A DNA stretch of 53,719 nucleotides from a virus (lineage: Duplodnaviria > Caudoviricetes): positions 1 to 53,719 of the IMG/VR virus record IMGVR_UViG_3300045950_000056, one strand, 5' to 3'. Below, one piece after another: positions 3,394 through 48,450 of the stretch; position 1 is the first letter of the stretch; every line of letters starts with the position of its first letter. The notes below the pieces were generated by a model. That model had not been told where the DNA came from. It made no database searches and saw nothing but the letters and a program-made list of their open reading frames with translations. The position numbers were made by a program, and so were the translations under genes.

Positions 3394-3395
3394 GA

Positions 3396-6214: not shown

Positions 6215-7540
6215 ATGCAAAAACTCAAGAAGAAGAGCAAGATCACCATCAAGAAGAAGAGGCAAGACAATAAATCTGGACTACCAGCCGTAGCGCAACC
6301 GCCCACGCCAACGAGGCGACTGGTAGTCAGGTCGCCAGATGGTCTCTCGCCGCGCTCCCTTGAAGAAGCGATGGCCCTTGCAACTCAGCTATCGGATTCG
6401 GCATTAGTCCCGAAGGAGTATCGAGGCAAGCCCGGCGATATCCTTATTGCCATCGGCCTCGGGCATGAGGTCGGCCTCAAGTGGGCCCAGGCCCTCCAGT
6501 CCATCGCGGTTATCGGTGGCCGCCCGACGATCTGGGGGGATGCCGGGCTCGGGCTCGTGATCCAGCACCCCGATTACGAATGGCACAAGGAGACCGACAA
6601 CGCTCAAACACAGACGGCGACCTGTGCAATCAAGCGGCGCGGACTCGATCCAGTGGTGCGGACGTTCTCGCAGGCCGATGCCGAGCGGATCACCGTTTGG
6701 GAGCGAGACGCGCAAGGCAACACTCGGCAGGTCCGACTCGCCGACAGGCCAGTCTGGAAGGCGGGCTATGGCCAGCGAATGCGCCAGATGCGGGCGCGCT
6801 GGTGGGCCATGAAGGACAGCTTCCCCGATGCCCTCAAGGGTATCGAGGGGCGGGAATGGGTAGAGGATGATCTCTCGGTCACCCGCGAGGCCGAGAGGCC
6901 ACCGCTTGAGGACTTGATGCCCAAGAAACCAATCATACCTGCGGCGCGGAGTCACGGTGAGCGGCGAGACGAGTCTATGCGGCAGACTGGCGGGGAGGGG
7001 ATGACGGAGCCGCAGAATATCGGGCCATCCCTGAATCAGGCAGGCGTCTCAGCGAGGGGGTCGGAGCCGAGTTCACCGTCGCCGCAAGGTACCCTTCTGC
7101 TTCTCACTCCCGATCAGCAAGAGCGGCATGCGCTGCTCGGGAGGATCGACGAGCTTGTCAAACAGAAGAAAGCCAAGGCCCAGTGGTTCGGGGGTGTGGT
7201 CGCGCAATACGCGGGTGGCGATCTGGCTACGGCGTCCCTCGACAGCCTGCTGGCGATCCACGATCTGCTGACGGGCATTCCTGACCCGCCGAATAAGGAG
7301 CCCCATCCCCGCAAGAATCACGTGGTCACTTTCGAGATCGGCGGGCGGTCCTATACGACTGCCGGGATCGAGAAGACGACTCTGCTGGCGATCTTCGACG
7401 CCGAGGCCAAGCTGGAGAAAATCCAGAAGGGCCTTGCCAGGACGATGCTCGTGAAGCACTTCGGCGTGGAGCACCGCACCGACCTCACCGAGGAGCAGGC
7501 GCAAATCTACGTCCGCAAGCTCCAGGAGGCGATCCAATGA
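6215..7540 (+). CDS. recT: RecT/Bet-like ssDNA-annealing protein with C-terminal extension
   Basis: VPKEYRGKPGDI...GHEVGL...QALQSIAVIGGRPTIWGD...RMRQMRAR...FPDALKG. Confidence 0.85.
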   Translation: MQKLKKKSKITIKKKRQDNKSGLPAVAQPPTPTRRLVVRSPDGLSPRSLEEAMALATQLSDSALVPKEYRGKPGDILIAIGLGHEVGLKWAQALQSIAVIGGRPTIWGDAGLGLVIQHPDYEWHKETDNAQTQTATCAIKRRGLDPVVRTFSQADAERITVWERDAQGNTRQVRLADRPVWKAGYGQRMRQMRARWWAMKDSFPDALKGIEGREWVEDDLSVTREAERPPLEDLMPKKPIIPAARSHGERRDESMRQTGGEGMTEPQNIGPSLNQAGVSARGSEPSSPSPQGTLLLLTPDQQERHALLGRIDELVKQKKAKAQWFGGVVAQYAGGDLATASLDSLLAIHDLLTGIPDPPNKEPHPRKNHVVTFEIGGRSYTTAGIEKTTLLAIFDAEAKLEKIQKGLARTMLVKHFGVEHRTDLTEEQAQIYVRKLQEAIQ

Positions 7541-7707
7541 TGAACATGTGGGACCGCTTTGTGTGGGGAGTGGGTGCCACTCTGCTTACTGGGGTTGCGT
7601 TTGTTACGTGCGTGTTTATTATTGTGTTATTCATCGCCGGAACTACGGCAATCTTCTCCGAGAAATTGGTCTATTCCAAAGAAACGGGCTGGGGCTGCAA
7701 AAAATGA
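7537..7707 (+). CDS. Small membrane protein, 56 aa; absent from the ORF track
   Basis: Manual translation; long hydrophobic stretch; ATGA-coupled at both ends. Confidence 0.6.
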   Translation: MMNMWDRFVWGVGATLLTGVAFVTCVFIIVLFIAGTTAIFSEKLVYSKETGWGCKK

Positions 7708-8297
7708 CGCACCGGGGTCGGACGATAGGCGGCATCTACTACCCGTCGGTGACGGAAATCCTGGCGGCGGTGGGGCTTGGCCCACAGTATGATGGGATGC
7801 CTCCAGATCGTCGGGCTTACGCGATGGCCCGAGGTTCAGCCGTCCACAAGGCGATTGAACTTGAGTGGGCTGGGCAGCTTAGCGGCTACCAACTCCACGC
7901 TGGCACAGTAGGCTATGTGGACGCCTTTCGGCGATGGCGCGATGAGGTGAAGCCCACACTCATCGCGGCTGAGCCCGAGCTAATCAGCCACCGGTGGCGC
8001 TTCCTCGGGCATCCTGATCTTGTAGCAGACCTTGGTGACTCGCGTATCGTGGTGGTGGAATATAAATGCGGGAAGGTTCCCCCTGAAGCCGTGTACCAAG
8101 CCCAAGCGTATCGAATTCTCGCGCTTGAACACTATCCAGGACCAGTTCCTGTGATTGCCCTTGAACTTCATCCCGATGGCTCGTACCGGCATTGGGTCCT
8201 TGATCTGCCCCAAACAGATCAGGTGATCCATGCGGCGATTATTGTCTATCGGGAGCAGCGTTATCTTGGCCGATCCGTGGAGAAAGGAGGCGCATGA
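7704..8297 (+). CDS. PD-(D/E)XK exonuclease, RecT partner
   Basis: YPSVTEIL, RGSAVHKAIE, GHPDL, VEYK, QAQAY motifs. Confidence 0.8.
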   Translation: MTHRGRTIGGIYYPSVTEILAAVGLGPQYDGMPPDRRAYAMARGSAVHKAIELEWAGQLSGYQLHAGTVGYVDAFRRWRDEVKPTLIAAEPELISHRWRFLGHPDLVADLGDSRIVVVEYKCGKVPPEAVYQAQAYRILALEHYPGPVPVIALELHPDGSYRHWVLDLPQTDQVIHAAIIVYREQRYLGRSVEKGGA

Positions 8298-8986
8298 TGA
8301 GCGAAGCGGTAATGACCCTTCAGCGTCAAGGGAATAGCCTTCTGGAAGAGGTAAGCTCCCTTGTGGTCCTGGATCAAGAGAGCGCGGCCATTGCCTCGGG
8401 CTATCGGCAAGCCGTCAAGGGGTATCTGAAACGGGTCGAGGAGTTGACGGCTCCCGTGATCCAAGCAACGAAACAAGCCGTTGCGGCGGCGATGGCTCAA
8501 CGGGAGGGGCTACGCCAGCCTGGCGTGACCGCCCAAACGACCTTGGATCAGAAGCTTCTGGCTTATGACCGCGAGGTCGCCAGACAGCGGGCTGAAGCCC
8601 AGCGCCTTGCCGAAGAGGAACGGCAGCGGTTGGTGGACGAGGCCAAGCTCCAAGCTGCCCTCGACGCTGAGGCGAACGGGCATCCGGGGCAAGCAGAGGC
8701 CATCCTCGCCGCGCCCGAGCCACCCATGCCAGTCCTGGCCCCGCCAGCGGCAATGCCAGAGCCAGCCAAGACGGAAGGGGTCTGGTATCGCTCGACGTGG
8801 GAAGCTCATGTGGTGGACTTCCGGGCACTGGTCCAGGCATGGCTTGACGGCAAAGTGCCCGAGCTGGCACTCCTGCCTGGCCAGGTGGCGCTCAACGACC
8901 TTGCCCGCGCCAAGCGGTCGGTGGATCTTGGCATCCCTGGCGTAATCGGCGTGGAAAAGCGAAGTGTGGCGGGCAGGGCGGGATAA
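8294..8986 (+). CDS. Conserved phage coiled-coil protein of recombination modules
   Basis: Long coiled coil, RSTWEAHVVDF and C-terminal IPGV. Confidence 0.65.
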   Translation: MMSEAVMTLQRQGNSLLEEVSSLVVLDQESAAIASGYRQAVKGYLKRVEELTAPVIQATKQAVAAAMAQREGLRQPGVTAQTTLDQKLLAYDREVARQRAEAQRLAEEERQRLVDEAKLQAALDAEANGHPGQAEAILAAPEPPMPVLAPPAAMPEPAKTEGVWYRSTWEAHVVDFRALVQAWLDGKVPELALLPGQVALNDLARAKRSVDLGIPGVIGVEKRSVAGRAG

Positions 8987-10539
8987 TGGACGCATGCCGG
9001 GTATTAGTCCACATCCTCACTCACTGCTACAACGACTGCGCGGCAGGTCTGTCGCCTGGCGGCGCAAGCCCCCAAGCCCCCTTCCGCCAAGGCTCACGGC
9101 GTCTCTTGAGTGCCCGCACGGGCACTTACACGACGTTTCTCCAGCGGAAGTCCCACTCCGGACTTGACTCGGGGTTCGTGCCTCTCTGGTTGCCGGACAT
9201 GCTCTTCGATTTTCAGAAGGCGCTCACGGAGTGGGCTATCCTGAAAGGCCGAAGCGCCCTCTTCGCGGATTGCGGGATGGGTAAGACGTACATGCAACTC
9301 GTCTGGGCCGAGAATGTGGTCCGTCAGACGAACAAAGCCGTGCTGATCCTGACGCCGCTTGCGGTTTCTCAGCAGACCGTCGAGGAGGGCGAGAAATTCG
9401 GGATCGAGGTCCGCCGAACCACCGACGGGACAATCAAACCTGGTATCAATGTCACGAACTACGACCAGCTTCACAAATACGATCCAGCAGAAGTTGTCGC
9501 CGTCGTCTGCGACGAAAGCTCGATCCTGAAACATTTCGGCGGGGCGACACAAAAGCTGCTCACGCGGTTCGTCTCCAAACTTCCGTACCGGCTCCTCTGT
9601 ACGGCGACGGCGGCCCCGAATGACTTTCACGAACTCGGGACCAGTAGCGAGGCCCTAGGCGTCCTCGGCTATACGGACATGCTGAGCCGGTTTTTCGCTC
9701 TCGCCGACAGCGGCCACTGGCGGCAGGACGCTGTGAGGCTCGCGCAGCAGGCGAAAGCTGGCCACCACTACGCGAGGCTGGCCTATCGTGTGTCCCAACA
9801 GATCGGCCAGTGGCGGTTGAAGCCGCACGCGGAAATCCCGTTCTGGCGATGGGTCTGCTCCTGGGCGCGGGCTTGTCGGAGTCCTGCGGACCTTGGGTTT
9901 GCTCAGGACGGCTTCGCGTTGCCCGCATTGATGGAGCGCCACTATATCGTGACGCCCTCCCGTCCTCCAGACGGGATGCTCTTCACCATCCCTGCCTTTG
10001 GGTTAAGTGAGGAGCGGGACGAACGCCGCCGGACACTGGACGAGCGCGTGGACTTGGTGCGACGCCTTGTTGATCATCCCGAGCCAGCCGTCGTGTGGTG
10101 CCATCTGAACGTGGAAGGTGACCGTCTCGCCGAGGCGATTCGGGGCAGTGTCCAAGTGAAGGGATCAGACAGTAACGAGGCCAAGGAAGAAGCCTATCGC
10201 GCGTTCAGCCGTGGCCAAGTGCGTGTCATTATTACGAAGCCGAAAATCGGGGCGTGGGGCCTGAACTGGCAGCACTGCGCCCATGTCGTGACCTTTGCGT
10301 CCCACAGCTACGAGCAGTATTACCAGTCTGTGCGCCGATGCTGGCGGTTCGGCCAGCACCATCCGGTGACTGTCGATATCATCTCCACCGAAGGGGAAGT
10401 GCATGTGCGGGATAACATGGTCCGAAAGATGGCGGCGGCGGACCAGATGTTCACAAGCCTCGTTCGCTATATGCATGAGGCTGAGCCTGTGACCAGGGTC
10501 CACGCCGACCAGGACGTAGACGTGCCCTCATGGCTGTGA
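8986..10539 (+). CDS. SNF2/SF2-type helicase; true start may be near 9106
   Basis: LFADCGMGKT, CDESS, TATAAPND, GLNWQHC, QSVRRCWRFGQ. Confidence 0.9.
   Translation: MDACRVLVHILTHCYNDCAAGLSPGGASPQAPFRQGSRRLLSARTGTYTTFLQRKSHSGLDSGFVPLWLPDMLFDFQKALTEWAILKGRSALFADCGMGKTYMQLVWAENVVRQTNKAVLILTPLAVSQQTVEEGEKFGIEVRRTTDGTIKPGINVTNYDQLHKYDPAEVVAVVCDESSILKHFGGATQKLLTRFVSKLPYRLLCTATAAPNDFHELGTSSEALGVLGYTDMLSRFFALADSGHWRQDAVRLAQQAKAGHHYARLAYRVSQQIGQWRLKPHAEIPFWRWVCSWARACRSPADLGFAQDGFALPALMERHYIVTPSRPPDGMLFTIPAFGLSEERDERRRTLDERVDLVRRLVDHPEPAVVWCHLNVEGDRLAEAIRGSVQVKGSDSNEAKEEAYRAFSRGQVRVIITKPKIGAWGLNWQHCAHVVTFASHSYEQYYQSVRRCWRFGQHHPVTVDIISTEGEVHVRDNMVRKMAAADQMFTSLVRYMHEAEPVTRVHADQDVDVPSWL
9109..9126. promoter_or_regulatory. 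18-bp palindrome copy (17/18)
   Basis: AGTGCCCGCaCGGGCACT near the 5' end of the helicase core. Confidence 0.65.
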
Positions 10540-11495
10540 TCGAGCAGAGCGTGACTAACCGCTACGCGCTCTACTTAGGCGACTGCGTAGAGGTCATGGC
10601 AACGCTGCCAGACGCCTCTGTGGACATGTCGATCTATTCGCCTCCATTCGGGGGCCTCTACCAGTACAGCTCCGACGAGCGGGACATGTCGAACTGCGTC
10701 ACGCGCGAGGAGTTTTTTGAGCATTACGAATTTGCCGTGCGCGAGATCACGCGGTTGACCAAGCCGGGGCGCATGACGGCTGTTCATTGCGCGGACATTG
10801 CGAGTGGGAACACTGGACTCGATCACCTCTACGATTTCCCCGGCGACCTCATCCGCCTCCATGAGCGGATCGGATGGAAGTTCTGCGCCCGATATCATGT
10901 TTGGAAAGAGCCCCTGACGGTTCGCAACCGGACGATGACGAAGGCGCTGTCCCACAAAATGCTGACGCTCGACTCCACCCGGTGCAACATCGCCAATGCG
11001 GATCAACTGCTGCTCTTTCGGAACCGAGGCACGAATCACGTGCCAGTCTCCCATCCCAACGGTCTGCAACACTACGCTGGTGCGCGCCCGATTCCGTCCG
11101 ACGTGCTCGCTTACCGAGGCTGGCGCGGGTCGCAGATTGAGAATCGCTACTCTCACTGGATCTGGCGGCAGTACGCCTCGGCCTTCTGGGACGACGTACG
11201 GATCGACCGGGTGCTGCCGTATCGGCAGGCCAAGGATGAGGATGATGAGAAGCACGTCCACCCGCTGCAACTGGACGTCATCGAGCGCGGACTGATCCTC
11301 TGGTCGAACCCTGGCGAGACGGTCCTCACGCCGTTTATGGGCGTGGGATCGGAAGTATATGCCGCGCTCTCATTAGGGCGTAGGGCGATTGGGATTGAAC
11401 TGAAATCAAGCTATTATCAGCAAGCCAAAGCGAATATCAAATCGCTCGGTCGGCTCGCGGATCAAGACGAGTTGGCACTCGATGGGCAGCCGTGA
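10530..11495 (+). CDS. DNA amino-methyltransferase (N4-C/N6-A, beta class)
   Basis: YSPPF catalytic motif, KHVHPLQL, VLTPFMGVGS SAM motif, IGIELK. Confidence 0.9.
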   Translation: MAVIEQSVTNRYALYLGDCVEVMATLPDASVDMSIYSPPFGGLYQYSSDERDMSNCVTREEFFEHYEFAVREITRLTKPGRMTAVHCADIASGNTGLDHLYDFPGDLIRLHERIGWKFCARYHVWKEPLTVRNRTMTKALSHKMLTLDSTRCNIANADQLLLFRNRGTNHVPVSHPNGLQHYAGARPIPSDVLAYRGWRGSQIENRYSHWIWRQYASAFWDDVRIDRVLPYRQAKDEDDEKHVHPLQLDVIERGLILWSNPGETVLTPFMGVGSEVYAALSLGRRAIGIELKSSYYQQAKANIKSLGRLADQDELALDGQP

Positions 11496-12296: not shown

Positions 12297-12438
12297 GCAC
12301 CGGCCAATGGTTCCCGACAAGTGAGCAGTTTTCCGATCTCGCCGGTCGGCTCTTCGAGGCCTACCGCGAGCTGTGCAAAACCGATGAATGCAATTGCATC
12401 ACCAGACGATCATGCTCTTCGATGCTCAGTCTGGTCAA

Positions 12439-12771
12439 ATGATCCGCCAGACGACGCTCCGACGGCAGGGTAAGGTTACTCGGCGGCGCACTGCGGCAGC
12501 CCGAAACCTGCGCGCCCAACTGCTCGCCCGATCTGGCGGTCGGTGCGAAGTCCCGTGGTGCCGCCGGACTCGCCGGTTGGATACCCATCACGTCGTCAAG
12601 CGGAGCCAGGGCGGGCACGAAACGATGAACAATCTGGTCCTCCTCTGTCGCCGGTGCCATGAGGCGACGGATCGGCCATTGGAGAAAGGCAGACTCGTAA
12701 TTAGCGTTGTCCTCGTCATGAACCACCCCAAGTTCCGGCTTTACCTTAATGGGGAATGGGCTTGGAGATGA
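12439..12771 (+). CDS. HNH endonuclease
   Basis: CEVPWC...DTHHVVKRSQGG...NLVLLCRRCH. Confidence 0.9.
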   Translation: MIRQTTLRRQGKVTRRRTAAARNLRAQLLARSGGRCEVPWCRRTRRLDTHHVVKRSQGGHETMNNLVLLCRRCHEATDRPLEKGRLVISVVLVMNHPKFRLYLNGEWAWR

Positions 12772-13127
12772 TACGTTTCTTTATTCCGGGCCTACCTCAA
12801 GCGAGTCAGACCGGCTCCGTGATCCGCGGCCGAGGACGCATGGCGGGGCGACTGATCCCGCTTCGGCGCGGGCAAGGATGGCGAGATCGCTGTGTGTTGG
12901 CGGCGAAAGCGAATCGCCCGACCAGCGGGCCGTTCGATGGTCCCGTGTCCATTGAGCTAGAGTTCACGTCCGAGGGAGCCTACGTGTGGTGCGAGCCTGT
13001 GCCGTCGGCCAGGAGCAGCATCCGAGGCGACATCGACAACCTCGTCAAGGGCTGCCTCGACGCTTTCCAGGGACAGCTGTATCACCGGGATAGTCAGGTA
13101 GTCAGGCTGATCGCGGTCAAGAAATGA
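12768..13127 (+). CDS. rusA: RusA-like Holliday junction resolvase
   Basis: GPVSIELEF, DIDNLVKGCLDAF, DSQVV. Confidence 0.85.
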   Translation: MIRFFIPGLPQASQTGSVIRGRGRMAGRLIPLRRGQGWRDRCVLAAKANRPTSGPFDGPVSIELEFTSEGAYVWCEPVPSARSSIRGDIDNLVKGCLDAFQGQLYHRDSQVVRLIAVKK

Positions 13128-14420: not shown

Positions 14421-14736
14421 TCGGATTCGGAATGCACACAAGCGCGGTGGCTTCACTGCGCAGGATCGAAAGTTAGCGGCTGACTGGAAGACGTGCGCCG
14501 TCGGGGAACAGCGGCAGAAGTATCCAGACGTGATTCGGTTTGAACCTGTACCTCTGGACTTCTTTGCCCCAGTGAATGTTCCAACTGATTTACAGTTGAT
14601 AAAATTGGGCGGCTGGCAGCAGGGGTTTTATCGGGCTGTGGAATACGATAATGTAGCCGAGGCGCGGCGATTGCTCCGCCAGATTGAAGTGCGCGCCTTG
14701 GAGTTGAAGAAGGAACACGAAAGAAAGGCGAGCTAG
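14374..14736 (+). CDS. Hypothetical phage protein
   Basis: Strong RBS; WKTCAVGE motif. Confidence 0.65.
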   Translation: MSTPRAKPKRPRNWNDRIRNAHKRGGFTAQDRKLAADWKTCAVGEQRQKYPDVIRFEPVPLDFFAPVNVPTDLQLIKLGGWQQGFYRAVEYDNVAEARRLLRQIEVRALELKKEHERKAS

Positions 14737-15506
14737 TGCCACGGATTCGCCGGTGGCATCCGGTAAGTCATGAGTTCGTCCGGGACCCGGAGGTCCAAGA
14801 GTTGCGCCGTCTCTACGGGGACTGGATGGGCTACGTGTGGCTCGAAATGCTGGCGATTGCCGACCGAAATGAGGGGAGAATCAAGGGGAATTCGCGGCAA
14901 ATTGCGAGCAGTTTGTCGTGGATTTCCCTCCGAAATCGGCCCAGTTTGTCGTGGAAATCCATTCAATCTGCATTACAATTCATGGTGAAACGCGGCTGGA
15001 TTCTAGAGGAAAACGGGTACTTTCTCACATGTAACTATGCGGAATACCATCCATCGAGGGGAACAGTGAAATCCCGAGCGGGAACGGAAGAGAATCCCCC
15101 CATAACTACCTTCACTAACATAACTAACATACCGAACCTAACTAACGAACCAGGAAACAAAAGCTCTGTCGGCTCACGCCGACCTCGGGAGCGTTCGGCC
15201 CCTGGAAGCCTGGACGGATTCGACGCCCTGTGGGCGGTCCACCCAGGACCGAAGGGACCGAAGTCGGATGCCGTCGCGGCGTACCAGCGGATCAAGCCGC
15301 CGCCCGAAGCGCTCGCCGCGCTCAAAGCTCAGGTGGAGCGGAAGGCCGAGTGCGACCGGATCGGCGTGTTTTGCCCTCAGCCGCCGCATCTCCACCGCTG
15401 GATCACGAAACGCCGGTGGGAGGACGAGTTGACGCCGTTGCCTGCTGCGCCGATGTCCCACGCCGAGAGATTGGCGCGGGAGGCGAGAGAGGAGAGACAA
15501 CCGTGA
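14736..15506 (+). CDS. Phage replication initiator (lambda O/replisome-organiser-like)
   Basis: N-terminal winged helix (W...DPEV..L...YVWLEML), Thr/Asn linker, FDALWAVHP...WITKRRWEDE C-domain. Confidence 0.75.
   Translation: MPRIRRWHPVSHEFVRDPEVQELRRLYGDWMGYVWLEMLAIADRNEGRIKGNSRQIASSLSWISLRNRPSLSWKSIQSALQFMVKRGWILEENGYFLTCNYAEYHPSRGTVKSRAGTEENPPITTFTNITNIPNLTNEPGNKSSVGSRRPRERSAPGSLDGFDALWAVHPGPKGPKSDAVAAYQRIKPPPEALAALKAQVERKAECDRIGVFCPQPPHLHRWITKRRWEDELTPLPAAPMSHAERLAREAREERQP
15102..15146. repeat. Five imperfect tandem 9-mers (ATAACTAAC consensus); candidate iterons/origin
   Basis: ataactacc ttcactaac ataactaac ataccgaac ctaactaac inside the initiator gene. Confidence 0.6.
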
Positions 15507-18683: not shown

Positions 18684-19391
18684 TTAATCCTCTAATAGCA
18701 TTTTCAGTTCGTGAACCTGCCAAGCTCGTTCGGCGTCCCGGGCGGCGTCCCCGGTAGCCCCGGCGGCCTTGGCGGCGGCCACGGCGGCGGCCCAAGCGGC
18801 GTCCCGGGCGGCGTCCCCGGTAGCCCCGGCGGCGGCCTTGGCCGCGGCCACGGCGGCGGCCACGGCGGCGGTCCAAGCGATGTCGGCGTCTCCGGCCGCG
18901 GCCACGGCGGCGGCCCAAGCGGCGACCACGGCGGCGGCCCCCGCGGCCCTGGCGCTGGCTAACTCTTCTTTTGTGGCCGTTTTATTGGCGTATCGAGTTG
19001 CGACCTCTAGTGCCGCCCACGATTGCGGATCGGGCTCTCGGCCCGCTGCGCGCTCTCGGTCGAGGGCTCGGGAGGCGCAGGCGACCGCAAAGAGGCGCGC
19101 CGTCTGCTCGGTCCAGGCGTCGCACCGGCTGAGAAGTCTGGCGCGCCTGACGACACACTTATTGTCTTGGCGCAGCAATTCGCCGTCTATCTCGACTCGC
19201 CAGATCGTTGGGCCTAGCCAGATGGGGAGCTGGTCGATTGTGCAGACGTGTAACCCGTGTTTGCACGGGATCAGGGGGGGGCCGGCCACTTCAACCCACT
19301 CGCCGGGCTGGCCGTCTTTGGGCAACGGCCAGCGCCCGGTGCCGCCGTTGATACTCTCGCCGTTTGGGCCGAGGACTTTGTAGTAGATCAT
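18684..19391 (-). CDS. Phage protein with C..GLH N-domain and Ala-rich AAW/DAA repeats
   Basis: YYKVL...PCKHGLH...RLFAVACA...AAWAAA...ERAWQ; GGAGG RBS. Confidence 0.8.
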   Translation of the reverse strand: MIYYKVLGPNGESINGGTGRWPLPKDGQPGEWVEVAGPPLIPCKHGLHVCTIDQLPIWLGPTIWRVEIDGELLRQDNKCVVRRARLLSRCDAWTEQTARLFAVACASRALDRERAAGREPDPQSWAALEVATRYANKTATKEELASARAAGAAAVVAAWAAAVAAAGDADIAWTAAVAAAVAAAKAAAGATGDAARDAAWAAAVAAAKAAGATGDAARDAERAWQVHELKMLLED

Positions 19392-19432: not shown

Positions 19433-20572
19433 TTACTCCAACAACGCCAGTAATGTATCGTAAATAGCTGTCGCTATTGCACTATCCAGCGCATTACCCA
19501 CGAGGTCGGCGGCCCATGAGAATGGAGCAAGAAATAAGAATGAATCCGGGAAGCCCTGGATCCTGGCGGCTTCCCGCAGCGTCAGGGCGCGGTTCTCGGT
19601 TGGGTGCCAGAATCGCCCGCTGCCGGGGTTGGCGAAGTAGCATGTGATGGTTCGGGCGAGACCAAGGCGGTGGAGACGGCCGTAGCTCTGCGAGTAGTGA
19701 TCAAGCCCGCCCCGCCAGCGACCGCCCTCCGGCACGCGGCTCATGCGGCGCAGCTGGCCGCGCGTATGCGCCCACGGTCGATGTGACAGCCTCTCCGCCT
19801 CAGCCATCCCGATGGGCGGCAGGCCGGTCAAGATCTCCCCCACGTAAGGAATCGTCCGCCGGCCAAGGCCTTCATCGTCAAAGGGCAGCCCCTTGCGCAA
19901 GCGCTGGGTCGCGGGCGCCTCCCCGAGCATCGAGACCCGATCGCCGTCGAGGCGCTTCATGGCCTGGTCGCGATAGCAGAAATACCGGCGTTCGCCGCCA
20001 TGCGACGCTCGCGCGATTCGGGGCGCGACGCCAACATCACGATGGATGCCGATGTACACGAGGCGCTGGCGGCACTGGGTGCTGCCGCGGAGCGCCGCGT
20101 TGATGATCCCGGCCGTCCAGGCGTAACCCGCGCGCTCAAGCCGGCGCGTGAACGTCCGGAACTGCGGCGCGCCGGCCCCCAGGGGTACGTTCTCCATCGC
20201 GATGGCCAACGGCTTAAGCGCGACAGCGAGGTCAGCAAAGCGGAGCAGGTGCGAGTTCCGGGGATCCCCGGGATCGCGGGCGCCGCCGTCGCTGAACCCC
20301 TGACACGGCGGACACCCGAGAAGGATGTGGACGCGACCCCCGGCCAGGGCCTCGATTCGATCCGGGCTCAACCGCCGGACGTCCGCCCTGACGTAGGGCG
20401 CGGTTGGGAAATTGTAGAGGTACGTATCCCGGGCGAAGTCATCGTTGTCGACGAAAAGGGCCAATCTGCACCGCTTCCAGCACCTGAACGGCTCCGCCGA
20501 TCGCGCCGTCCCCGCGTAGAGCTCCGCGAGACGGAGCGGCGCAAAATGCCTCACGATTGGCGCTCTATTCAT
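19433..20572 (-). CDS. dcm: DNA (cytosine-5)-methyltransferase
   Basis: GCPPCQGFS, MENVP, QCRQR, LTLREAARIQGFP, VGNA; motif I degenerate. Confidence 0.9.
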   Translation of the reverse strand: MNRAPIVRHFAPLRLAELYAGTARSAEPFRCWKRCRLALFVDNDDFARDTYLYNFPTAPYVRADVRRLSPDRIEALAGGRVHILLGCPPCQGFSDGGARDPGDPRNSHLLRFADLAVALKPLAIAMENVPLGAGAPQFRTFTRRLERAGYAWTAGIINAALRGSTQCRQRLVYIGIHRDVGVAPRIARASHGGERRYFCYRDQAMKRLDGDRVSMLGEAPATQRLRKGLPFDDEGLGRRTIPYVGEILTGLPPIGMAEAERLSHRPWAHTRGQLRRMSRVPEGGRWRGGLDHYSQSYGRLHRLGLARTITCYFANPGSGRFWHPTENRALTLREAARIQGFPDSFLFLAPFSWAADLVGNALDSAIATAIYDTLLALLE

Positions 20573-20614
20573 CTCTCCTCCGCTCATCTATACTGCGACA
20601 TGAGGCCGGTCGCG

Positions 20615-21307
20615 ATGGACCCATTGAGCCCAAAGGAGCGCAGTCGTCGGATGATCCGCGTTCGCTCAACTGAAAACCGGTCAACCGAATGGAAGTTCCG
20701 CTCGGCGCTCATCCGGCAAGGACTCAGGAACTGGGTAATGCACCCGCGCTCAATTCCTGGCGTGCCAGACTTTCTCTTCCCGCCACGTAAGCTAGCGATC
20801 TTCATTGACGGATGTTTTTGGCACCGTTGTCCCAAGTGTCGTCGACGCCTGCCAGCGACCAACCGCGCATACTGGTCTCGAAAAGTGAAATCCAACGTGG
20901 CGCGCGCGCGGAGCGTCACGCGCCAGCTCCGTCACGAGCGCTTCGCCGTCGTTAGAATCTGGGAGCACGAGCTCCGCTCTCTAGGCTCGCTCCAAAAACT
21001 CTTCCGCGCCTGCGCTACAGCCCGAGTCGTTTCTACTGGACGCCATCCGCCGAGGAGTAACCCCAGGAGCTTCGCTGTCGGTGCTGGGATCGCCCGCCTG
21101 CCTGTCTCCCAGCGGGTTACCGTGACGCGGTGGACCCCGACGAGGCGGGCAAGCCCGGCCTGGCTGACGCGCAGGCGACCCCGGATCGCCCGGCAGTGGG
21201 TTGGGGTCATCTCCACATCCATCCGACGATTCCTGATATCCCCGCACTTGCAGCATTTCATGTGCGGCTTCCTCCGGATAGTGTCTGGCGGCACGTCGAG
21301 ACAGTAG
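20615..21307 (+). CDS. vsr: Very-short-patch repair endonuclease with non-conserved C-terminal run-on
   Basis: MD...RSRRM..VRS, PGVPDF, IFIDGCFWH, YWSRK..NVAR, VRIWEHE. Confidence 0.9.
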   Translation: MDPLSPKERSRRMIRVRSTENRSTEWKFRSALIRQGLRNWVMHPRSIPGVPDFLFPPRKLAIFIDGCFWHRCPKCRRRLPATNRAYWSRKVKSNVARARSVTRQLRHERFAVVRIWEHELRSLGSLQKLFRACATARVVSTGRHPPRSNPRSFAVGAGIARLPVSQRVTVTRWTPTRRASPAWLTRRRPRIARQWVGVISTSIRRFLISPHLQHFMCGFLRIVSGGTSRQ

Positions 21308-21324
21308 CAATGGTCACACGTCAT
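20932..21324 (-). CDS. Zn-ribbon plus XRE/Cro-type HTH regulator
   Basis: CDHC...CCKC then IRGRLRVSQAGLARLVGVHRVTVTRWETGRRAIP; GGAGG RBS before ATG 21324. Confidence 0.8.
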   Translation of the reverse strand: MTCDHCYCLDVPPDTIRRKPHMKCCKCGDIRNRRMDVEMTPTHCRAIRGRLRVSQAGLARLVGVHRVTVTRWETGRRAIPAPTAKLLGLLLGGWRPVETTRAVAQARKSFWSEPRERSSCSQILTTAKRS

Positions 21325-21338
21325 ACCCAACCTCCACC

Positions 21339-21358
21339 AGTGCCCCTGCGCGGGCACC
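21339..21358. promoter_or_regulatory. Palindrome copy with 2-nt central insertion
   Basis: AGTGCCCctGCGCGGGCACc directly upstream of the HTH gene RBS. Confidence 0.6.
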
Positions 21359-21627: not shown

Positions 21628-21657
21628 AGGATATAGCCACTGGTTACGTCTTGTCAA
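21628..21657 (-). promoter_or_regulatory. Leftward sigma70-type promoter TTGACA-N18-TATCCT
   Basis: Perfect -35 at head of the leftward operon; a second TTGACA at 21685-21690 faces right. Confidence 0.6.
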
Positions 21658-21721
21658 GTGAAAAAATCGCGCGACAAAATTTCCTTGACACGCCACCGCA
21701 CATCCGAGAGGATGAACAGCG

Positions 21722-22096
21722 ATGACTGTACCCGACCGCGCATCCGAGCTCCCTAGCCCTGTAAGAGTCCTCCTGCCCTCTGGGGCCACTGTGGAGGCTC
21801 AGGCAGTAGGTCTCCCCTCCCCCAGGGTCAACGTCGCAACAGAATCACCTCCTCTCGGAGGCGTCAGACCCGGTGCTGGACGGCCCCGGAAGTATTCCGA
21901 TAACGCCTCCCGACACCGTGCCTTTCGGGCACGCCACCGGACACCCTGGAAGCCGATCTTGCGTGCGCTGAGGCGGCACGAGAAACGCTTGCAGGCTAAG
22001 GGGATTCTCGTGAAGGGCCAGGAGCAGAGCAGGGGAACATCCAGCGTGACAGGCGGGGATCTGAGGACGAACGGAGATGCGGCGCAACTCACTTGA
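21722..22096 (+). CDS. Small basic putative DNA-binding protein
   Basis: GGVRPGAGRPRKYSDNASRHRAFRAR motif; GAGG RBS. Confidence 0.55.
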   Translation: MTVPDRASELPSPVRVLLPSGATVEAQAVGLPSPRVNVATESPPLGGVRPGAGRPRKYSDNASRHRAFRARHRTPWKPILRALRRHEKRLQAKGILVKGQEQSRGTSSVTGGDLRTNGDAAQLT

Positions 22097-22247
22097 TGGC
22101 GACCGTCGCGCCGTCTGGTTTTGCCTGCTAGCGGTGTGGGCTCTGGTTCTGCGGAATTCCTTTAGCCCCTTAAGGAGTGGCAGAAATGACACAAGAAGAG
22201 GGGGCGCTACCCTCCAGAGAGCGCGCCAGCGAACCTGCGTCCCCCAC

Positions 22248-22347
22248 TGGAAAGACCGTGGTGGGATTCGAACCCACGGCGGCGTGGTAACGCACGCCGC
22301 ACCTAGCGGCGAGCTAGGCGCCTTAGGCCACTCTCAGCCACCCGGTC
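22248..22347 (-). tRNA. Aberrant class II (Ser-like body) tRNA with anticodon CGC
   Basis: Cloverleaf: acceptor GACCGGG/CACGGTC (one mismatch), D-loop AGTGGCCTAA, anticodon stem CCTAG/CTAGG with loop CTCGCCG, 8-bp variable arm, T arm GTGGG-TTCGAAT-CCCAC, then TTT-CCA. Confidence 0.85.
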
Positions 22348-22401
22348 AAGTCAGGGGCGCCCGAAACCTTGCCAAGGGAAGGGCGCCCTTGGTGCTTCTC
22401 T

Positions 22402-22430
22402 TGCTAACATAATGACGGATTATCAGACGC
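22402..22430 (-). other. dif: dif-like XerC/XerD recombination site
   Basis: Minus strand GCGTCTGATAA-TCCGTCA-TTATGTTAGCA: 11-bp arms, ATAA/TTAT inner symmetry, XerD core TTATGTTA, 7-bp spacer. Confidence 0.7.
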
Positions 22431-22580
22431 TGGGAAATCAAGGGCTTGTGGGTACGCCAGTTACCCTACAATCCAGTGTAGGCTCATCCCGAGTGCGTGG
22501 TGGCGAAAATGAGACTGTCATGACATGTGTCAGATACGAGACACTCAATGGGGCGCCTATTCTCCATGGGTGGCGAGCGG

Positions 22581-22596
22581 TGTTTCACGTGGAACA
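22581..22596. other. parS: Chromosomal-type parS centromere site
   Basis: TGTTTCACGTGGAACA; reverse complement fits TGTTNCACGTGAAACA fully; non-coding context. Confidence 0.85.
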
Positions 22597-22812
22597 CGAA
22601 GTGGGTGTTATGGCCATGGTGTAGTGTTCTCATGGGCGCTGACCCATATACAATCACCCCCTTTGGCGTCAGTTTTGGCGGCAGTTTTTCTCCAGAAAGG
22701 CGATTCACAAAATGACCTTGGGAATTGCACAGCCGGCCCCCTCGCTCGAAAATTTCCGATATACCCAAAATCCAGTTGGGGGTAGGGGGGGCCTGCGAAG
22801 TCGGGAGGGAAG

Positions 22813-23091
22813 ATGTCCACGGCATATGATCTTCTAGCCCTCGCGCTGCTGCTAATTGGGTTCGCGGCAGTTTATTATGTCGGTCGAAAACATGGCGAGC
22901 TTTCGGCACCGACGGGCTGCGTGGGCGTTCACCATCTGTGGCGCGGGGGATCATGGATCTGTGTCTGCCGGAGCTTCAGAGTGGACCCTGACGCCCGTCT
23001 ATTGATCCCGGTCCCGAATACTGCCGAGACTGAAACCGGCGCAAGAGCCATGAAGCACGACCAGAGGAGGCGCACCAATGACCCTTGGTGA
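22813..23091 (+). CDS. Small membrane protein
   Basis: GGAGG RBS, N-terminal TM. Confidence 0.6.
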   Translation: MSTAYDLLALALLLIGFAAVYYVGRKHGELSAPTGCVGVHHLWRGGSWICVCRSFRVDPDARLLIPVPNTAETETGARAMKHDQRRRTNDPW

Positions 23092-23213
23092 AGAGATCAG
23101 AGAACTGGACGTCGAACCGCTCCAGTGGCCCTCGGCCCTCCCGGCGCAACAGCCCGTATCCGTGCCAGAGCCAGCGCCAGAGGCTATCCCAGCCGAGGTT
23201 GAGGGGGCGCATC

Positions 23214-23885
23214 ATGCCAGTTGATCCGCTCTCCCGGGACCCCCTCGGCCAATTCCTTCGACAACTCCAACAAGCCCAACTCCAACAAGCCCTACAACAG
23301 ACATCTGCGACTGCAAGCACGGTAACCGCATCCTGGAGCAGTCCAATGGCGGGCGGACCGTTCACAACAAGCACGTTCACAACGACAACGGGCACCTCTT
23401 CCATCTACGTCCCCCACACATCCCACGGGAGTGCGCGACCAGAAACAGTCCTCGCCGGTCCGATTCTAGCGTATCGGTACTATTTCATGTGGGAAGCTCC
23501 GGGACAGGAATTGCGGTTGTATCCGCTGACTACCAGAGAGGGCCTTCCCTACGGAAGGGTTCTGGCCGCCACGCATGACTCCTCAGGAGCGCCCGCGCCA
23601 GCCAGAGGATGTTCCTGCGGCTATTATTCGATGAAAACCATGAAGCTCCTGATGGACTACCCGCTCCCGAACCCCCTCATCCCAGTCATCTATGCGCTCG
23701 TCGCCTGCTGGGGGCGCGTCATCGAACACCGCGACGGCTACCGGTCTCAGTACCAGTATCCCGTGCGCGTCTGGCTGCCTCGACCTGAGATTCCTGGATT
23801 TCCTCGCTCCCCGCATCTCGATCGGATGCTGGCGACGATTCAGGACCGGTACGGATGTGAGATCGGGCCTCCTCCCCCCTCGTAA
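23214..23885 (+). CDS. Hypothetical protein with CxCGYY...WGRVIEH..GYR domain
   Basis: Recurrent phage domain pattern; RBS GAGGGG. Confidence 0.65.
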   Translation: MPVDPLSRDPLGQFLRQLQQAQLQQALQQTSATASTVTASWSSPMAGGPFTTSTFTTTTGTSSIYVPHTSHGSARPETVLAGPILAYRYYFMWEAPGQELRLYPLTTREGLPYGRVLAATHDSSGAPAPARGCSCGYYSMKTMKLLMDYPLPNPLIPVIYALVACWGRVIEHRDGYRSQYQYPVRVWLPRPEIPGFPRSPHLDRMLATIQDRYGCEIGPPPPS

Positions 23886-25651: not shown

Positions 25652-26738
25652 TCGAGAGATTCGGGCGGCGGCCCGTGAAACCGGAATTCCCGAGGACCTG
25701 ATCCGGTCGGTGATCAAGGTCGAATCGAATTTCAACCCTCGCGCGGTCGGTGCCCAAGGTGAACAGGGCCTCATGCAGCTGGGACCTGATCTCGCCCGGT
25801 CGCTCCCCGATCCCTTCGAGCCTCGCGCGAACATTCGGCGAGGGGCCCAGTTCCTTAAAGAACTGCTCGATCGGTTTGGGGATCAAGAATTGGCGCTGGC
25901 GGCCTACAACGCGGGACCGACGCGCGTGAGTCGACTCGGGCGACGGATATTCTCAGAAATCCCGAGTGTGCGGAGGTATGTGGATCGGGTGCTCGGGCGG
26001 ATGACGGCCATCGCCGAATCGCCTGAGCCGCGCTTGGCTCCGCCGACTCCGGGACGCCCATCGGAACGCCCGACCCGTCCGACGTTGTCCCGAGAACCCA
26101 TCGTCGACCGTCCGCTGATCTCAGCGGGCGAGGCGCCGAGACCCTCACGCCCCCCGTTGCCAGAACCTCCACGGGTCTCCGTGCGGCCTCCCTTGGAGGA
26201 GACGGCCAGTCAGCTCGTGCCTCGACCGATCCCCCCACGGGTGCATCGGGAGGGTCCGCCGAGAGCGGGCCCCCCGCCACCAGCGAGAATTCCTGTCGCG
26301 TCCGTGCTGGCCCATCTTCGCCCCCGGGAAGCGCAGGCGGAGATTCGGCGCCCCGTGCCCGGCCACACCGAATCATTCCCGGTTCCCATCCCGCCCACGT
26401 TCGAGCCCCTCGAACCGGTCGAGATGCCGGCCGGTCCATTCCGACCTCGCGCAGATGTGCCCGAAGGGCCACCCCCGGGAGTGCCCCAACCCGCCGATTT
26501 GGAACGCCTCGGACTCCGGCTGAGTCCGCTAGCGACGATCTCGGACCGTCCAGCTCCGATCGCCGTGGTCATTCCGGTTCCCTCACCCCCGCCACCGACT
26601 CCTCCGCCTCTGGCGGACCTCACCGAGGCGGGACGCGAATGGCACCGGCTCTACGCGATGATGCACCGCCAGATGGTCGATCAGGCGTTCGCCCGCCTCC
26701 GGGAGCGAGAAGCCGAGTCCCTCATCCAGGCGCCCTGA
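25635..26738 (+). CDS. Soluble lytic transglycosylase domain plus long Pro/Arg-rich tail
   Basis: IKVESNFNPRAV, GLMQL, NIRRGAQFL, ALAAYNAGP. Confidence 0.9.
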   Translation: MAQTFDREIRAAARETGIPEDLIRSVIKVESNFNPRAVGAQGEQGLMQLGPDLARSLPDPFEPRANIRRGAQFLKELLDRFGDQELALAAYNAGPTRVSRLGRRIFSEIPSVRRYVDRVLGRMTAIAESPEPRLAPPTPGRPSERPTRPTLSREPIVDRPLISAGEAPRPSRPPLPEPPRVSVRPPLEETASQLVPRPIPPRVHREGPPRAGPPPPARIPVASVLAHLRPREAQAEIRRPVPGHTESFPVPIPPTFEPLEPVEMPAGPFRPRADVPEGPPPGVPQPADLERLGLRLSPLATISDRPAPIAVVIPVPSPPPPTPPPLADLTEAGREWHRLYAMMHRQMVDQAFARLREREAESLIQAP

Positions 26739-28465
26739 TGCCCTGGCCGACGGCATCCCTGAAACACCCGGACCTCGAACGCTATCACTGGATTCGGGAA
26801 TTGCACCGGTGTGAGCGGCGGTTCGACTATCTCTGCGCGTCGTACCTCCACATCAAATCCAAGGACGTGATCGGATTTCCGACGCTCCGGTTCAATCCCG
26901 TGCAGCGAGTGCTCTGGGAGCGGATGCGGGCCCAACTCCGGCGGGAGGGATGGGTGCGGCAAGTATGGGGCAAAGCCCGCGCGGTCGGCGCCTCCACGCT
27001 GGCCGAGGCGTGGACCTTTTATAACACCGCCTATCAGGATAATCGCAGCGCGATCATGCTCGTCCACGACGAGCCCACGTCATTTGAGCGGTTCGACGTG
27101 ATTCATACGTTCCTGGATGCGCTGCCCGATCCGTTGAAACCGCTGTGTTCGTACCGCTCCAAAACGCGCATGATGTTCAAGAACCGGAATTCCAAGATCA
27201 AGACGGGCCATGCGCGGAATCCGAACGTCGGAGCCTCTGAAACCATTCATATCAGTCACGAGACCGAATGGGCGCGATATCCGAACCCGGAGGAGGTGCA
27301 AGCCTCTCTCGCGCCGACCTATTCCGAGGCGAAGGGCGCGCAGTTTTCTTCGGTGATCCGGGAATCGACCTCCGTGTACGGCGGGACGTGGTTCAAGGAG
27401 TTCGCGGAGGCCAGCCGAAAGGGCGAGACCGAGTACGAATTTCATTTCGTCCCGTGGTTTCTCCATCAGAGCTATACCGCGCCTGTGCCCGAGGACTTCG
27501 AGCTGACGGTGGACGAGCAGGAACTGAAACGTCGCTATCAGCTCACCGATGGACAGCTGGCGTGGCGGCGCAAAAAGCAAACCGAATATGTCACCAATCC
27601 GCAGTTGATCGACCAGGAGTATCCCTACAGTTGGGAGGATAGCTGGCGACTCCCGAAAGGGACGCGGCGCCTCCTGGATGAGGCGCTCTTGACGGCCCTG
27701 AAACAGGGGGTCCGCCCGGCGACGCGCATGATGCCGACCTCGACGGGCTTGGAGGCGATGCTGGGAGGACCGGTGGACGTCTGGGCCGAACCGGAGGAGG
27801 GCGTCTTCTATGATTTCGGGCTCGATCCGGCCGAGGGGGCCTCCGACGCCTCGGACTGGACGGTCGGATGCGTGATCCGGCGGGATACGCTCGAACAGGT
27901 CGCGCAGTTTCGCCTCCATCTCAACCCCGCGGCCCCGGAATTCTTCGATCTGGTGTATTGGCTTGGCATGGCCTATCATGGGGCCCAGTTCTGCCCGGAT
28001 ATCACGGCGGGATGGGGCCATGCGGTCATGCGGGAGATGATGCACCGGAACTATCCGACGATCTGGCGCTGGCGGCACTTCGATGACGCGAAAGGCCGCG
28101 CGAGCCAGAAGCTCGGCTTTCTCTTTACGCCGCAGTCCAAGCGGACGCTGGTGACCACGACGGTCGCCGCCCTGACGGCGGGCCATGTTACGATTCACTC
28201 AGAAATTCTGTGGAATGAACTGGTCGAATTCCTGTGTCTCGGCCTCGATCAGTGGGGGGCGGCCCCGGGACACCATGATGACTGCGTGGTCGCCTGGATG
28301 CTGGCGATCCTGGCCGCGCGCGGCGAGCAATCCACCCTGATCCCGGCGGATCCCCCCGTGGTCGCCACAACCATCGGGAAACCCTGGGCGGTCCATGATG
28401 TGGACGCGGATTTGCCCGCAGCGGCCCTGGCGTGGTTAGACACTTCACCGTGGAGGATTCGATGA
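26738..28465 (+). CDS. terL: Terminase large subunit
   Basis: KARAVGAST Walker A, HETE Walker B, EST coupling motif, GLDPAEG and HDDCVVA nuclease motifs. Confidence 0.9.
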   Translation: MPWPTASLKHPDLERYHWIRELHRCERRFDYLCASYLHIKSKDVIGFPTLRFNPVQRVLWERMRAQLRREGWVRQVWGKARAVGASTLAEAWTFYNTAYQDNRSAIMLVHDEPTSFERFDVIHTFLDALPDPLKPLCSYRSKTRMMFKNRNSKIKTGHARNPNVGASETIHISHETEWARYPNPEEVQASLAPTYSEAKGAQFSSVIRESTSVYGGTWFKEFAEASRKGETEYEFHFVPWFLHQSYTAPVPEDFELTVDEQELKRRYQLTDGQLAWRRKKQTEYVTNPQLIDQEYPYSWEDSWRLPKGTRRLLDEALLTALKQGVRPATRMMPTSTGLEAMLGGPVDVWAEPEEGVFYDFGLDPAEGASDASDWTVGCVIRRDTLEQVAQFRLHLNPAAPEFFDLVYWLGMAYHGAQFCPDITAGWGHAVMREMMHRNYPTIWRWRHFDDAKGRASQKLGFLFTPQSKRTLVTTTVAALTAGHVTIHSEILWNELVEFLCLGLDQWGAAPGHHDDCVVAWMLAILAARGEQSTLIPADPPVVATTIGKPWAVHDVDADLPAAALAWLDTSPWRIR

Positions 28466-29038: not shown

Positions 29039-30760
29039 ATGGCGACCCTGACCCTTCCTGACGTGATCCGATTGGAGGGTCGTCGAAAAACGCCAGAAGA
29101 GGATCAGGCGTTGAAGGTCCTCGATACGCTCTTTGACGAGGCGAAGCGGGCGAAAGATCACTGGGTCAAGCAGGAGGACATTGACCGCGATCTGAAGCTC
29201 TATCGCGGCCAGGTGGGACCTCCGAACCGCGAGCCGCACTTCAAAGCTAACTTTGTTGAAGCGTTCATCGACCGGATGACCGCCCAGTTGACCGATAACC
29301 GCCCGATTATCCGAGTCGAATCCCGAAAAGACGGGCTGAAAGGCGTCGCGGATGTCGCCAACAAGGTCGTGCGGGCCATCTGGGACGACGAAGATGTCCA
29401 GCGGCAGACCTTCAAAATGTGCCATAACGCCGCCGTCACCCGCTCGTCGGGATTTTACACGGGCTATGATCCGCTTCTGGATCAAGTGGTCCTGGAACTC
29501 GTGCCGATCTCCCAGGTGTGGATTGACCCGGCCGTGTCCGAGGCCGCGCGGGTCAGCAAACACGCCGAATACGTCATCATCGAGCGCATCCGGTCCTTGG
29601 AAGAAGTGAAGGCACGATTCGGCCGACGGGCGGACGGGCTCACGGCCGATTCGGACATTGATGTCGTCCCACAGGAGCGCCGGTCGGTGGCCTCTCCGCT
29701 GACCGATATTGTCTTTGGTCGGCGTCTTCGGGGCGGAATGGGCGTGCCACGGATCAAATTGAGGGAACATCTGCTCCGGGATTGGGCCGTCTCGACCGAG
29801 AACGGCTCGGTCCGCCTCAGCAATCCCGGAGGCCGCATCCTGATCCGGTCGAAGGATCGGCTGCTCTACGCGGGACCGAACCCGTACTGGGACAGCGAAT
29901 TCTGTCTGGACTGGTTCGACTGGCGGGTCGATCCGCAGCATCCCTGGGGGGCCTCCGAGCCCGACCGGCTCCGGCACCTCCAAATTTCCTTTAACGAGAT
30001 CATGGACGGACTCGTTGAAAACCAACTCCTGAGTAATTTCCTGGCCTTGGTCGCTGATTTCGACGCCTTCAGCCCGGAGACCTGGACCAAGCTCCAACAG
30101 ATCAGCTCGAGCCTGATTCTCAGGAAGCAAAACCGGAATGCCTCGGCAGTCCTGACGCCGCCGCCGACGTTCGGAGCCGATAAAATCGCCCTCGCGCGAC
30201 AACTCTTCACGTTCGCCCAACTCCTGACGGGCGTGACCGATGTCACGCTCGGCGAAAGTCCGGGATCGCTCCAGTCTGGCGTCGCGCTCGAAGGGCTCCA
30301 GGAGGGGGCGAATCTCATGACGCGCTCGCGGGCCTCTCGGTTGGAGGATTTTTTTGCCCGCATCGGGCAGAAACTCCTCGCCCGGATTTTTCAGTTTATG
30401 ACCTCGGATCGTGTCGTGTCGTTGGTGGGTCCGACCGGGGCCGCTTTGGAATACGCGATCAAACGCCAGGAATTTTTCACCCGCGACGACGGGAACGCCA
30501 TCCCGGAACACGAGCGGCGCCAGGTCTTTCGGGATCTTCGCTTCGTTGTGTCACCGGGCTCCTCGGCCATTGGGAGCCGAGTCCGTCGAGTGGAAGCGAC
30601 CCTGAAGCTCAAGGAAGCGGGCGTCGCCTCAAGCCTGGATGTGCTCCAAGCTGGCGATTTTCCAGAACCGGAGGGCATGATCGAGCGGGCCAAGAAGGAA
30701 TTGATGGAAATGGCCCCCGTCCTCAACCTGTTAGGATCAAGACGTGGCCCTGCCAGTTGA
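29039..30760 (+). CDS. Portal protein (podovirus/P22-like)
   Basis: 573 aa after TerL; YRGQ, LTDNRP, VWIDP, LQISFNE, TGVTDVTLG, SGVAL. Confidence 0.85.
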   Translation: MATLTLPDVIRLEGRRKTPEEDQALKVLDTLFDEAKRAKDHWVKQEDIDRDLKLYRGQVGPPNREPHFKANFVEAFIDRMTAQLTDNRPIIRVESRKDGLKGVADVANKVVRAIWDDEDVQRQTFKMCHNAAVTRSSGFYTGYDPLLDQVVLELVPISQVWIDPAVSEAARVSKHAEYVIIERIRSLEEVKARFGRRADGLTADSDIDVVPQERRSVASPLTDIVFGRRLRGGMGVPRIKLREHLLRDWAVSTENGSVRLSNPGGRILIRSKDRLLYAGPNPYWDSEFCLDWFDWRVDPQHPWGASEPDRLRHLQISFNEIMDGLVENQLLSNFLALVADFDAFSPETWTKLQQISSSLILRKQNRNASAVLTPPPTFGADKIALARQLFTFAQLLTGVTDVTLGESPGSLQSGVALEGLQEGANLMTRSRASRLEDFFARIGQKLLARIFQFMTSDRVVSLVGPTGAALEYAIKRQEFFTRDDGNAIPEHERRQVFRDLRFVVSPGSSAIGSRVRRVEATLKLKEAGVASSLDVLQAGDFPEPEGMIERAKKELMEMAPVLNLLGSRRGPAS

Positions 30761-45456: not shown

Positions 45457-45463
45457 CCTGACA

Positions 45464-46633: not shown

Positions 46634-46654
46634 CTATGATAGGATTTCGGATAG

Positions 46655-47140: not shown

Positions 47141-47143
47141 CCC

Positions 47144-48432: not shown

Positions 48433-48450
48433 CAACGGGGGGATCAATCC

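Follow-up and report, generated by a model that had tools for sequence, protein, structure and literature searches.

An exact chromosomal-type parS site in a tailed phage genome with no detected integrase, ParA or ParB

The stretch of DNA analysed here, which we call the window, comprises 53,719 bp, the full length of an IMG/VR virus record, and has a GC content of about 62%; the record is classed as linear and has a CheckV completeness of about 90%. The phage was detected in one sequencing run only, that of a groundwater metagenome which is possibly its own source. Pfam and PHROGs scans of 70 different ORFs gave the gene map summarized in Table 1. The gene content is of the temperate type, comprising an XRE regulator with divergent promoters, a RecT-like protein, an exonuclease and RusA. 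The regulator gene points away from the 22.1-22.8 kb region, and the divergent promoter-like sites lie at 21628-21680. The replication initiator and the iterons within its gene are arranged as in a lambda-O-type origin, a predicted autonomous replicon of the kind expected of a phage-plasmid. An earlier note, made from the letters of this DNA, had described the XRE regulator, the divergent promoters and an O-like initiator, and all three were recovered. Also present in this 54-kb genome are three HNH-endonuclease-like ORFs (3390-4070, 12388-12771 and 51961-52602) and two DNA methyltransferases, one of the N6/N4 type and one of the C5 type.

Table 1. Features of the 53,719-bp window; positions are those of the window.
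Feature	Position	Strand	Basis and remarks
RecT-like protein	6215-7540		Pfam/PHROGs scan
PD-(D/E)XK nuclease	7548-8297		Pfam/PHROGs scan
Exonuclease	8294-8986		Pfam/PHROGs scan
Helicase	8986-10539		Pfam/PHROGs scan
N6/N4 methyltransferase	10530-11495		Pfam/PHROGs scan
HNH endonuclease	12388-12771		Pfam/PHROGs scan
RusA	12756-13127		Pfam/PHROGs scan
Replication initiator	14736-15506	+	phrog_270, 1.5e-9
Iterons, five tandem 9-bp copies of CATAACTAA	15101-15146		Tandem-repeat finding; within initiator gene
C5 methyltransferase	19433-20587		Leftward block
XRE-family HTH regulator	20932-21357	-	Leftward block; Pfam HTH_3, 1.1e-7; PHROG transcriptional regulator, 4e-13
Gap housing the parS site, dif-like site and tRNA-like gene	22097-22812		ORF map; 716 bp, flanked on the left by a small gene (21722-22096, rightward) and on the right by the long rightward gene array
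Terminator-like hairpin	22197-22215	-	Downstream of the tRNA-like gene, on that gene's own strand
Non-canonical type-II tRNA-like gene	22253-22347	-	ARAGORN 'tRNA-Ala(cgc)'; 95 nt, 8-bp variable arm
'dif-like' site	22402-22430	-	AT-rich inverted repeat ATAAT-N5-ATTAT; shares TTATGTTA with the XerD arm
70-aa ORF across the start of the dif-like site and parS	22412-22624	+	Automatic gene call; ORFan, coding status uncertain
Exact chromosomal-type parS	22581-22596		16-bp match to the consensus TGTTNCACGTGAAACA; TGTTCCACGTGAAACA on the minus strand, TGTTTCACGTGGAACA on the plus strand
Sigma-70-like promoter TTCTCA-16-TACAAT	22627-22654	+	Consensus scan, 9/12 matches; consensus match only
TerL	26639-28465		Rightward block, which also has an SLT transglycosylase
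P22-like portal	29039-30760		Rightward block
Beta-helix tailspike	43408-45456		Rightward block

The region in which the earlier note had seen a parS site, a dif-like site and a tRNA-like gene within about 350 bp is indeed the largest gap on the ORF map. Its description as the largest non-coding region holds only in that sense, since an automatic gene call exists within it for the 70-aa ORFan. The codon score of this ORF, 0.167 bits per codon by a noisy measure, falls within the range of real genes, and a search for its homologues among 1.84 billion representatives returned the self-match only. On this ground we rejected the idea that the ORF across parS is a fragment of a host gene. The sigma-70-like promoter sits 31 bp to the right of parS and, judged by its consensus match, is a candidate start of the rightward array, which runs from small ORFs through SLT, TerL and portal onwards.

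Other sequence elements surround the site. A CGCCACCGCACATCCGAG-like motif of about 19 bp is found in direct orientation at 21690-21708, 21730-21748 and 21931-21949 and in inverted orientation at 22484-22505; one copy abuts a TTGACA -35 element, and another lies between the dif-like site and parS. This repeat is a better candidate than parS for a phage operator. To the right of the gap, the ORF listed as 23085-23885 probably begins at the ATG at 23215, and its upstream part is overlapped by a 49-aa ORF at 23079-23228 that starts with an ATG at 23079 behind a good GGAGG ribosome-binding site.

The parS site proved to be the only robust element of the arrangement proposed in the earlier note. 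The phage site has the same 16 bp as the B. subtilis-type site of chromosomal ParABS systems, for which the consensus is printed in Table 1 of PMC7022226. It is the sole copy in the whole window even when up to 3 mismatches are allowed, and an exact match is expected by chance 3.0e-5 times per window, given the base composition of the window. The match is thus above chance, and the consensus parS of the earlier note stands. Very probably it is a genuine ParB-type site that would recruit the ParB of the host. Chromosomal ParABS sites lie near the chromosomal origin; this one is on a phage genome and is an orphan, its cognate parA and parB being absent from the same replicon.

The dif-like site did not withstand the same kind of scrutiny. 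The letters pointed out earlier are present, including TTATGTTA, which we take to be the conserved start of the XerD arm. A Xer site has two 11-bp arms, for XerC and XerD, on either side of a 6-8-bp centre. The reference for scoring was the E. coli dif, which may differ from the dif of the host; against its arms the site gives 6/11 and 8/11 matches, or 14/22, with a 7-nt spacer. The same score is equalled at four other places in the window, and the best score reached at least 14 in 30 of 30 Markov-1 randomisations. As judged by these scores, the site is at chance level, an AT-rich inverted repeat unsupported as a Xer site. Across 80 other parS-bearing viral loci (kept from at least 119 contigs, see below), dif-like matches do not crowd around parS, their density being 0.60 per kb near it and 0.49 per kb elsewhere.

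The tRNA-like gene, the third element, is more substantial but not canonical. ARAGORN finds a cloverleaf, and, as in phage tRNA genes and tRNA-like RNAs, the T-arm is canonical (GGUUCGAAUCC) and the D-arm carries GG. The Rfam model RF00005 scores it at 33.2 bits versus a gathering threshold of 29 in a 1-kb search; the gene is absent from the gathering-threshold search of the whole window. In a decoding tRNA the anticodon loop has 7 nt, with U33 and, at position 37, a purine; G3.U70 is the alanine identity pair. By these rules the gene departs from a canonical tRNA in both anticodon loop and identity: the anticodon loop reads CUCGCCG with C at position 37, C32-G38 closes in the free-energy fold (z = -3.9) to leave a 5-nt loop, UCGCC, and C3-G70 stands in place of G3.U70. 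The gene further shows a G6.A67 mismatch, the discriminator is U and no CCA is encoded. It is the combination of a type-II variable arm and an Ala-type anticodon with these changes that sets the gene apart from phage tRNA genes. Together with the terminator-like hairpin, its sequence has the look of an independent RNA gene with its own terminator, and of a non-decoding one.

Searches for the origin of this gene returned little. Exact patterns taken from it had 0 matches in metagenome contigs and 0 in viral contigs. When a host tRNA or attB was sought, the matches were confined to about 20-42 nt around the T-arm; they came from one Rhodoferax MAG and, of 401 genomes sampled from the same phylum, from 34. 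Identity with YrlA (Y RNA-like) was rejected at 16.4 bits versus a gathering threshold of 69. The parS site is perfect while the adjoining tRNA-like gene is aberrant, which fits selection on parS better than recent capture of the two together.

The earlier note had also remarked that no integrase, resolvase, ParA or ParB could be seen, and profile searches bear this out for the whole record. None of PF00589 (Phage_integrase), PF00239 (Resolvase), PF02195 (ParB_N), PF17762 (HTH_ParB) and PF13614 (AAA_31) was detected in six frames at E values up to 1, and the Pfam and PHROGs scans of the 70 ORFs contained no integrase, excisionase, resolvase or partition family. In the same six-frame Pfam searches and in the PHROGs scans of ORFs, neither partition nor other plasmid-maintenance genes of the phage's own were found. 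No multimer-resolution function was found in the phage either.

Public (Logan) contigs of the one run that contains the phage help to judge whether such a gene could lie just beyond the record. The first 12,345 nt of a contig of 31,103 nt are those of window positions 41375-53719, and the contig then runs for 18,758 nt beyond the window end; a second one, 22,504 nt long, would start at 18,804 of the window. The two contig breaks coincide exactly with tandem arrays at 18731-18947 and 41332-41461. From this contig arithmetic, the phage genome is very probably circular and closed, with a size of about 53.7 kb, and was split by the assembler at two repeats; a recombinase just outside the record is therefore unlikely. 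A pattern of the last 38 nt of the window, meant to read across the end, had 0 matches. The array at 18731-18947 is GC-rich, with periods of 12 to 69 nt, and lies inside the ORF at 18684-19391 on the minus strand; the second array, at 41.3 kb, is a 63-nt repeat. A contig of very high depth (about 1189x versus about 60x for the phage) touches short GC-rich stretches at 52385 and 36298; its likely source is a different organism with a short repeat in common.

Relatives of the phage were sought through its TerL, which retrieved homologues with 44-60% identity. No parS was present within 10 kb of TerL in 21 TerL-relative loci (44-54% identity), and an exact parS, an integrase or ParB was found in 0/5 whole relative records, three of them complete; a 2-mismatch parS match in one 55%-complete relative record is the sole exception. 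However, a protein-by-protein comparison showed that what the relatives have in common with the window is limited to its structural module at 24.8-48.4 kb, and no relatives were found for the early half of the window, including the parS region. The TerL and capsid relatives thus lack parS but also lack the entire early module, which makes this test of conservation uninformative rather than failed. The flanking ORFs at 21722-22096 and 23085-23885 have no relatives in IMG/VR, and the latter is essentially an ORFan, with one weak match (E 2.7e-5) in 5.8 billion proteins. At the DNA level, the 22.1-22.8 kb region shows no similarity to phages or plasmids. Among 185,579 species genomes a TerL relative is present in just 1, on a 5.4-kb MAG contig, and the phage group is uncommon as an integrated prophage. 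Matches of the helicase and the RecT-like protein in known phages were uninformative about the host, as the hosts of those phages are scattered (Synechococcus, Flavobacterium, Mycobacterium, Burkholderia and Salinibacter).

We then turned to other viral records with the same site. An exact-pattern scan of IMG/VR for parS gave at least 119 contigs, of which 80 were kept as loci (L098-L177). Position 5 of the pattern serves as an internal control: the ratio expected by chance (T:C:G:A) is about 1:2:2:2, so that the A and G variants measure the background. In the 103 sites of the 80 kept loci (of at least 119 contigs) this position is T in 70, C in 31, G in 2 and A in 0. As A and G are nearly absent (2/103), nearly all T and C sites, including the C type of the window, are genuine parS-type sites. 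By a crude measure, 46 of the 103 sites from these 80 of at least 119 contigs lie outside ORFs of at least 80 aa, although such ORFs cover about 83% of the DNA and leave about 17% free.

Few of these records encode ParB_N or a tyrosine integrase. ParB_N was detected in 3 of the 80 records kept from at least 119 contigs (in one of the 3 below the Pfam cut-off) and was absent from 77; a tyrosine integrase was present in 4 of the same 80. Neither was found in 18 of the 22 kept records with a completeness of at least 90% (again from at least 119 contigs), a figure to be read with the knowledge that genomes without an integrase are frequent among viral records anyway. Many of the records surveyed are fragments, and some are possibly plasmids or host DNA misfiled as viral. 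A tRNA gene occurs in one of the 80 kept loci (of at least 119 contigs), 6.9 kb from parS. PHROGs matches of the parS neighbours in six other viral loci were uninformative. Examples of the kept loci are L104, L126, L127, L128 and L176. Some kept loci carry 2-5 parS sites, and a number of sites fall in wide gaps that separate gene arrays; in L126, two abutting copies (6863-6894) occupy a 1.3-kb gap, and in L176 the site at 4399-4414 lies beside iteron-like repeats.

Several known systems resemble the arrangement in part. P1, N15 and the extrachromosomal mycobacteriophages each bring a ParA and a ParB of their own, which act with an element-specific parS. What the present phage has in common with these phage-plasmids, of which the extrachromosomal mycobacteriophages of PMC7157519 are examples, is a tailed-phage genome with its own replicon and no integrase, and a centromere-like site that implies episomal inheritance. 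In contrast to them, it has neither ParA nor ParB and carries the consensus site of the host chromosome. With the IMEXs (CTXphi, VGJphi and TLCphi) and the plasmid Xer sites (cer and psi) it would share the idea of an element without a recombinase that borrows the host XerCD through a dif-like site; however, the known IMEXs considered here are filamentous or other non-tailed elements found integrated at dif, whereas the candidate site of this phage is indistinguishable from chance and no integrated relative was found. A full-text literature search, judged by the titles and abstracts listed, found no description of a natural orphan chromosomal-type parS in phages. The papers that it brought up deal mostly with engineered parS/ParB labels or with phages that possess a parABS system.

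Starting from a sequence match beyond random expectation, a record devoid of the matching protein genes and a replicon of the phage's own, we infer ParB binding, an episomal state and partition. The best explanation we can offer, put forward tentatively and with less confidence than the ParB-type character of the site itself, is that host ParB recruited by parS serves a ParA-driven, plasmid-like partition of the phage episome. Dimers of host ParB would load at the phage parS as CTP-dependent clamps, from which a partition complex would build up on the DNA of the phage. The initiator and iterons of the phage would replicate the episome so marked, and host ParA would position and segregate it in the fashion of a low-copy plasmid. 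Without integrating, the phage could then exist outside the chromosome in a lysogenic, carrier or pseudolysogenic state, in which the dif-like sequence would have no demonstrable part. The ParABS system of the host and its parS preference are assumed in this scheme. We favour partition because a chromosomal par operon with a single parS can stabilise unstable plasmids (PMC7022226). Several observations count against it, namely that the phage has a single parS, whereas plasmid centromeres are often arrays; that no relative shares the region, so that selection on parS cannot be claimed; that no multimer resolution was found, though a recombination-proficient plasmid prophage would benefit from it; and that the phage comes from one sequencing run only. 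In addition, its relatives, without parS or integrase (0/5) and nearly absent from the 185,579 genomes, are as compatible with a virulent lifestyle as with an episomal state.

The site need not have any role in the phage. As a neutral passenger, it would have been picked up from host or plasmid DNA, perhaps with the tRNA-like gene, or have arisen by chance. This is somewhat unlikely in our view, although the site is single and the phage a singleton, a few chance matches are expected over very many windows even at 3e-5 each, and the tRNA-like gene next to it has a degenerate look that captured DNA could also have. Against capture, the flanks have no similarity to any phage or plasmid DNA, the ORF across parS, without a homologue in 1.84 billion representatives, bears no trace of a host-gene fragment, and a perfect parS stands beside the aberrant tRNA-like gene. 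Pure chance is also unlikely for the C variant, with A or G at position 5 in 2 of the 103 sites but C in 31 (80 of at least 119 contigs). Host ParB might also be captured for a purpose other than partition, which, reading from the layout of the sequence, we hold to be a little less likely again. Many replicating copies of the phage could act as a titration 'sponge' for ParB, to the detriment of segregation, SMC loading or division in the host. Extra parS copies are described as toxic in the Caulobacter literature. Alternatively, spreading ParB could be a host-supplied repressor of the adjoining rightward promoter. Repression would agree with the position of parS 31 bp upstream of the promoter-like site heading the rightward array, although that promoter is only a 9/12 consensus match; it has a precedent in P. 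aeruginosa, where ParB at parS3 and parS4 represses adjoining promoters (PMC5521831). The phage group moreover looks non-integrating and is rare in genomes, and the 18 of 22 near-complete parS records without ParB_N and integrase (from at least 119 contigs) would suit a trick of lytic growth.

Two further readings are far less probable than partition. The palindrome could be the operator of a phage regulator, the XRE protein or an ORFan neighbour, with a coincidental likeness to parS; it is almost palindromic, with its centre about 72 bp upstream of the probable start point for the promoter-like site, and an HTH regulator is encoded 1.2 kb away. Nevertheless, operators normally recur and this one has no second copy even at 3 mismatches, the CGCCACCGCACATCCGAG motif with its three direct copies and one inverted copy is the better candidate, and an exact 15/15 match to parS would be unexpected in an unrelated operator. 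We therefore consider an operator very unlikely. The least probable reading, in fact barely tenable, is the one advanced in the earlier note, a full three-part cis-only mini-chromosome cassette that combines segregation by ParABS with monomerisation or integration by XerCD. It draws on the closeness of three features within 350 bp, on a phage without its own recombinase and on the TTATGTTA segment, the conserved start of the XerD arm. However, the likeness to dif does not exceed chance, the 80 other viral loci (of at least 119 contigs) show neither an enrichment of dif-like matches near parS nor tRNA genes beside it, relatives of the tRNA-like gene are lacking in the databases searched, and the 185,579 species genomes yielded no integrated copies.

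Plasmid-prophages are thought to require their own partition genes, and lifestyle predictors class a phage without integrase or ParAB as virulent. If a 16-bp copy of the host centromere suffices to recruit ParB, some 'lytic' phages could persist as episomes at zero coding cost; alternatively, phages that recruit ParB could manipulate the segregation of the host chromosome. More speculatively than for the single phage, there is perhaps a class of phages, the present one included, that carries the host centromere sequence as a DNA-only device without ParB in a recurrent strategy, and that the host ParABS, possibly with SMC, treats as 'self'. Such treatment may serve episomal inheritance, silencing or sabotage of host segregation. 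An orphan parS would, if this is true, be a cheap sequence marker by which such phages could be found and their host range restricted to bacteria with ParABS.

A separate observation concerns the terminases of the phage group. Twelve TerL homologues were noted (P0009, P0013, P0014, P0018-P0021, P0025, P0033, P0037, P0043 and P0044), and many of the relatives are long, at 830-990 aa. The TerL of the window itself has no intein domains. LAGLIDADG or intein-splicing Pfam domains are found in 7 of the 12 long homologues, and intein-interrupted terminases appear common in this phage group.
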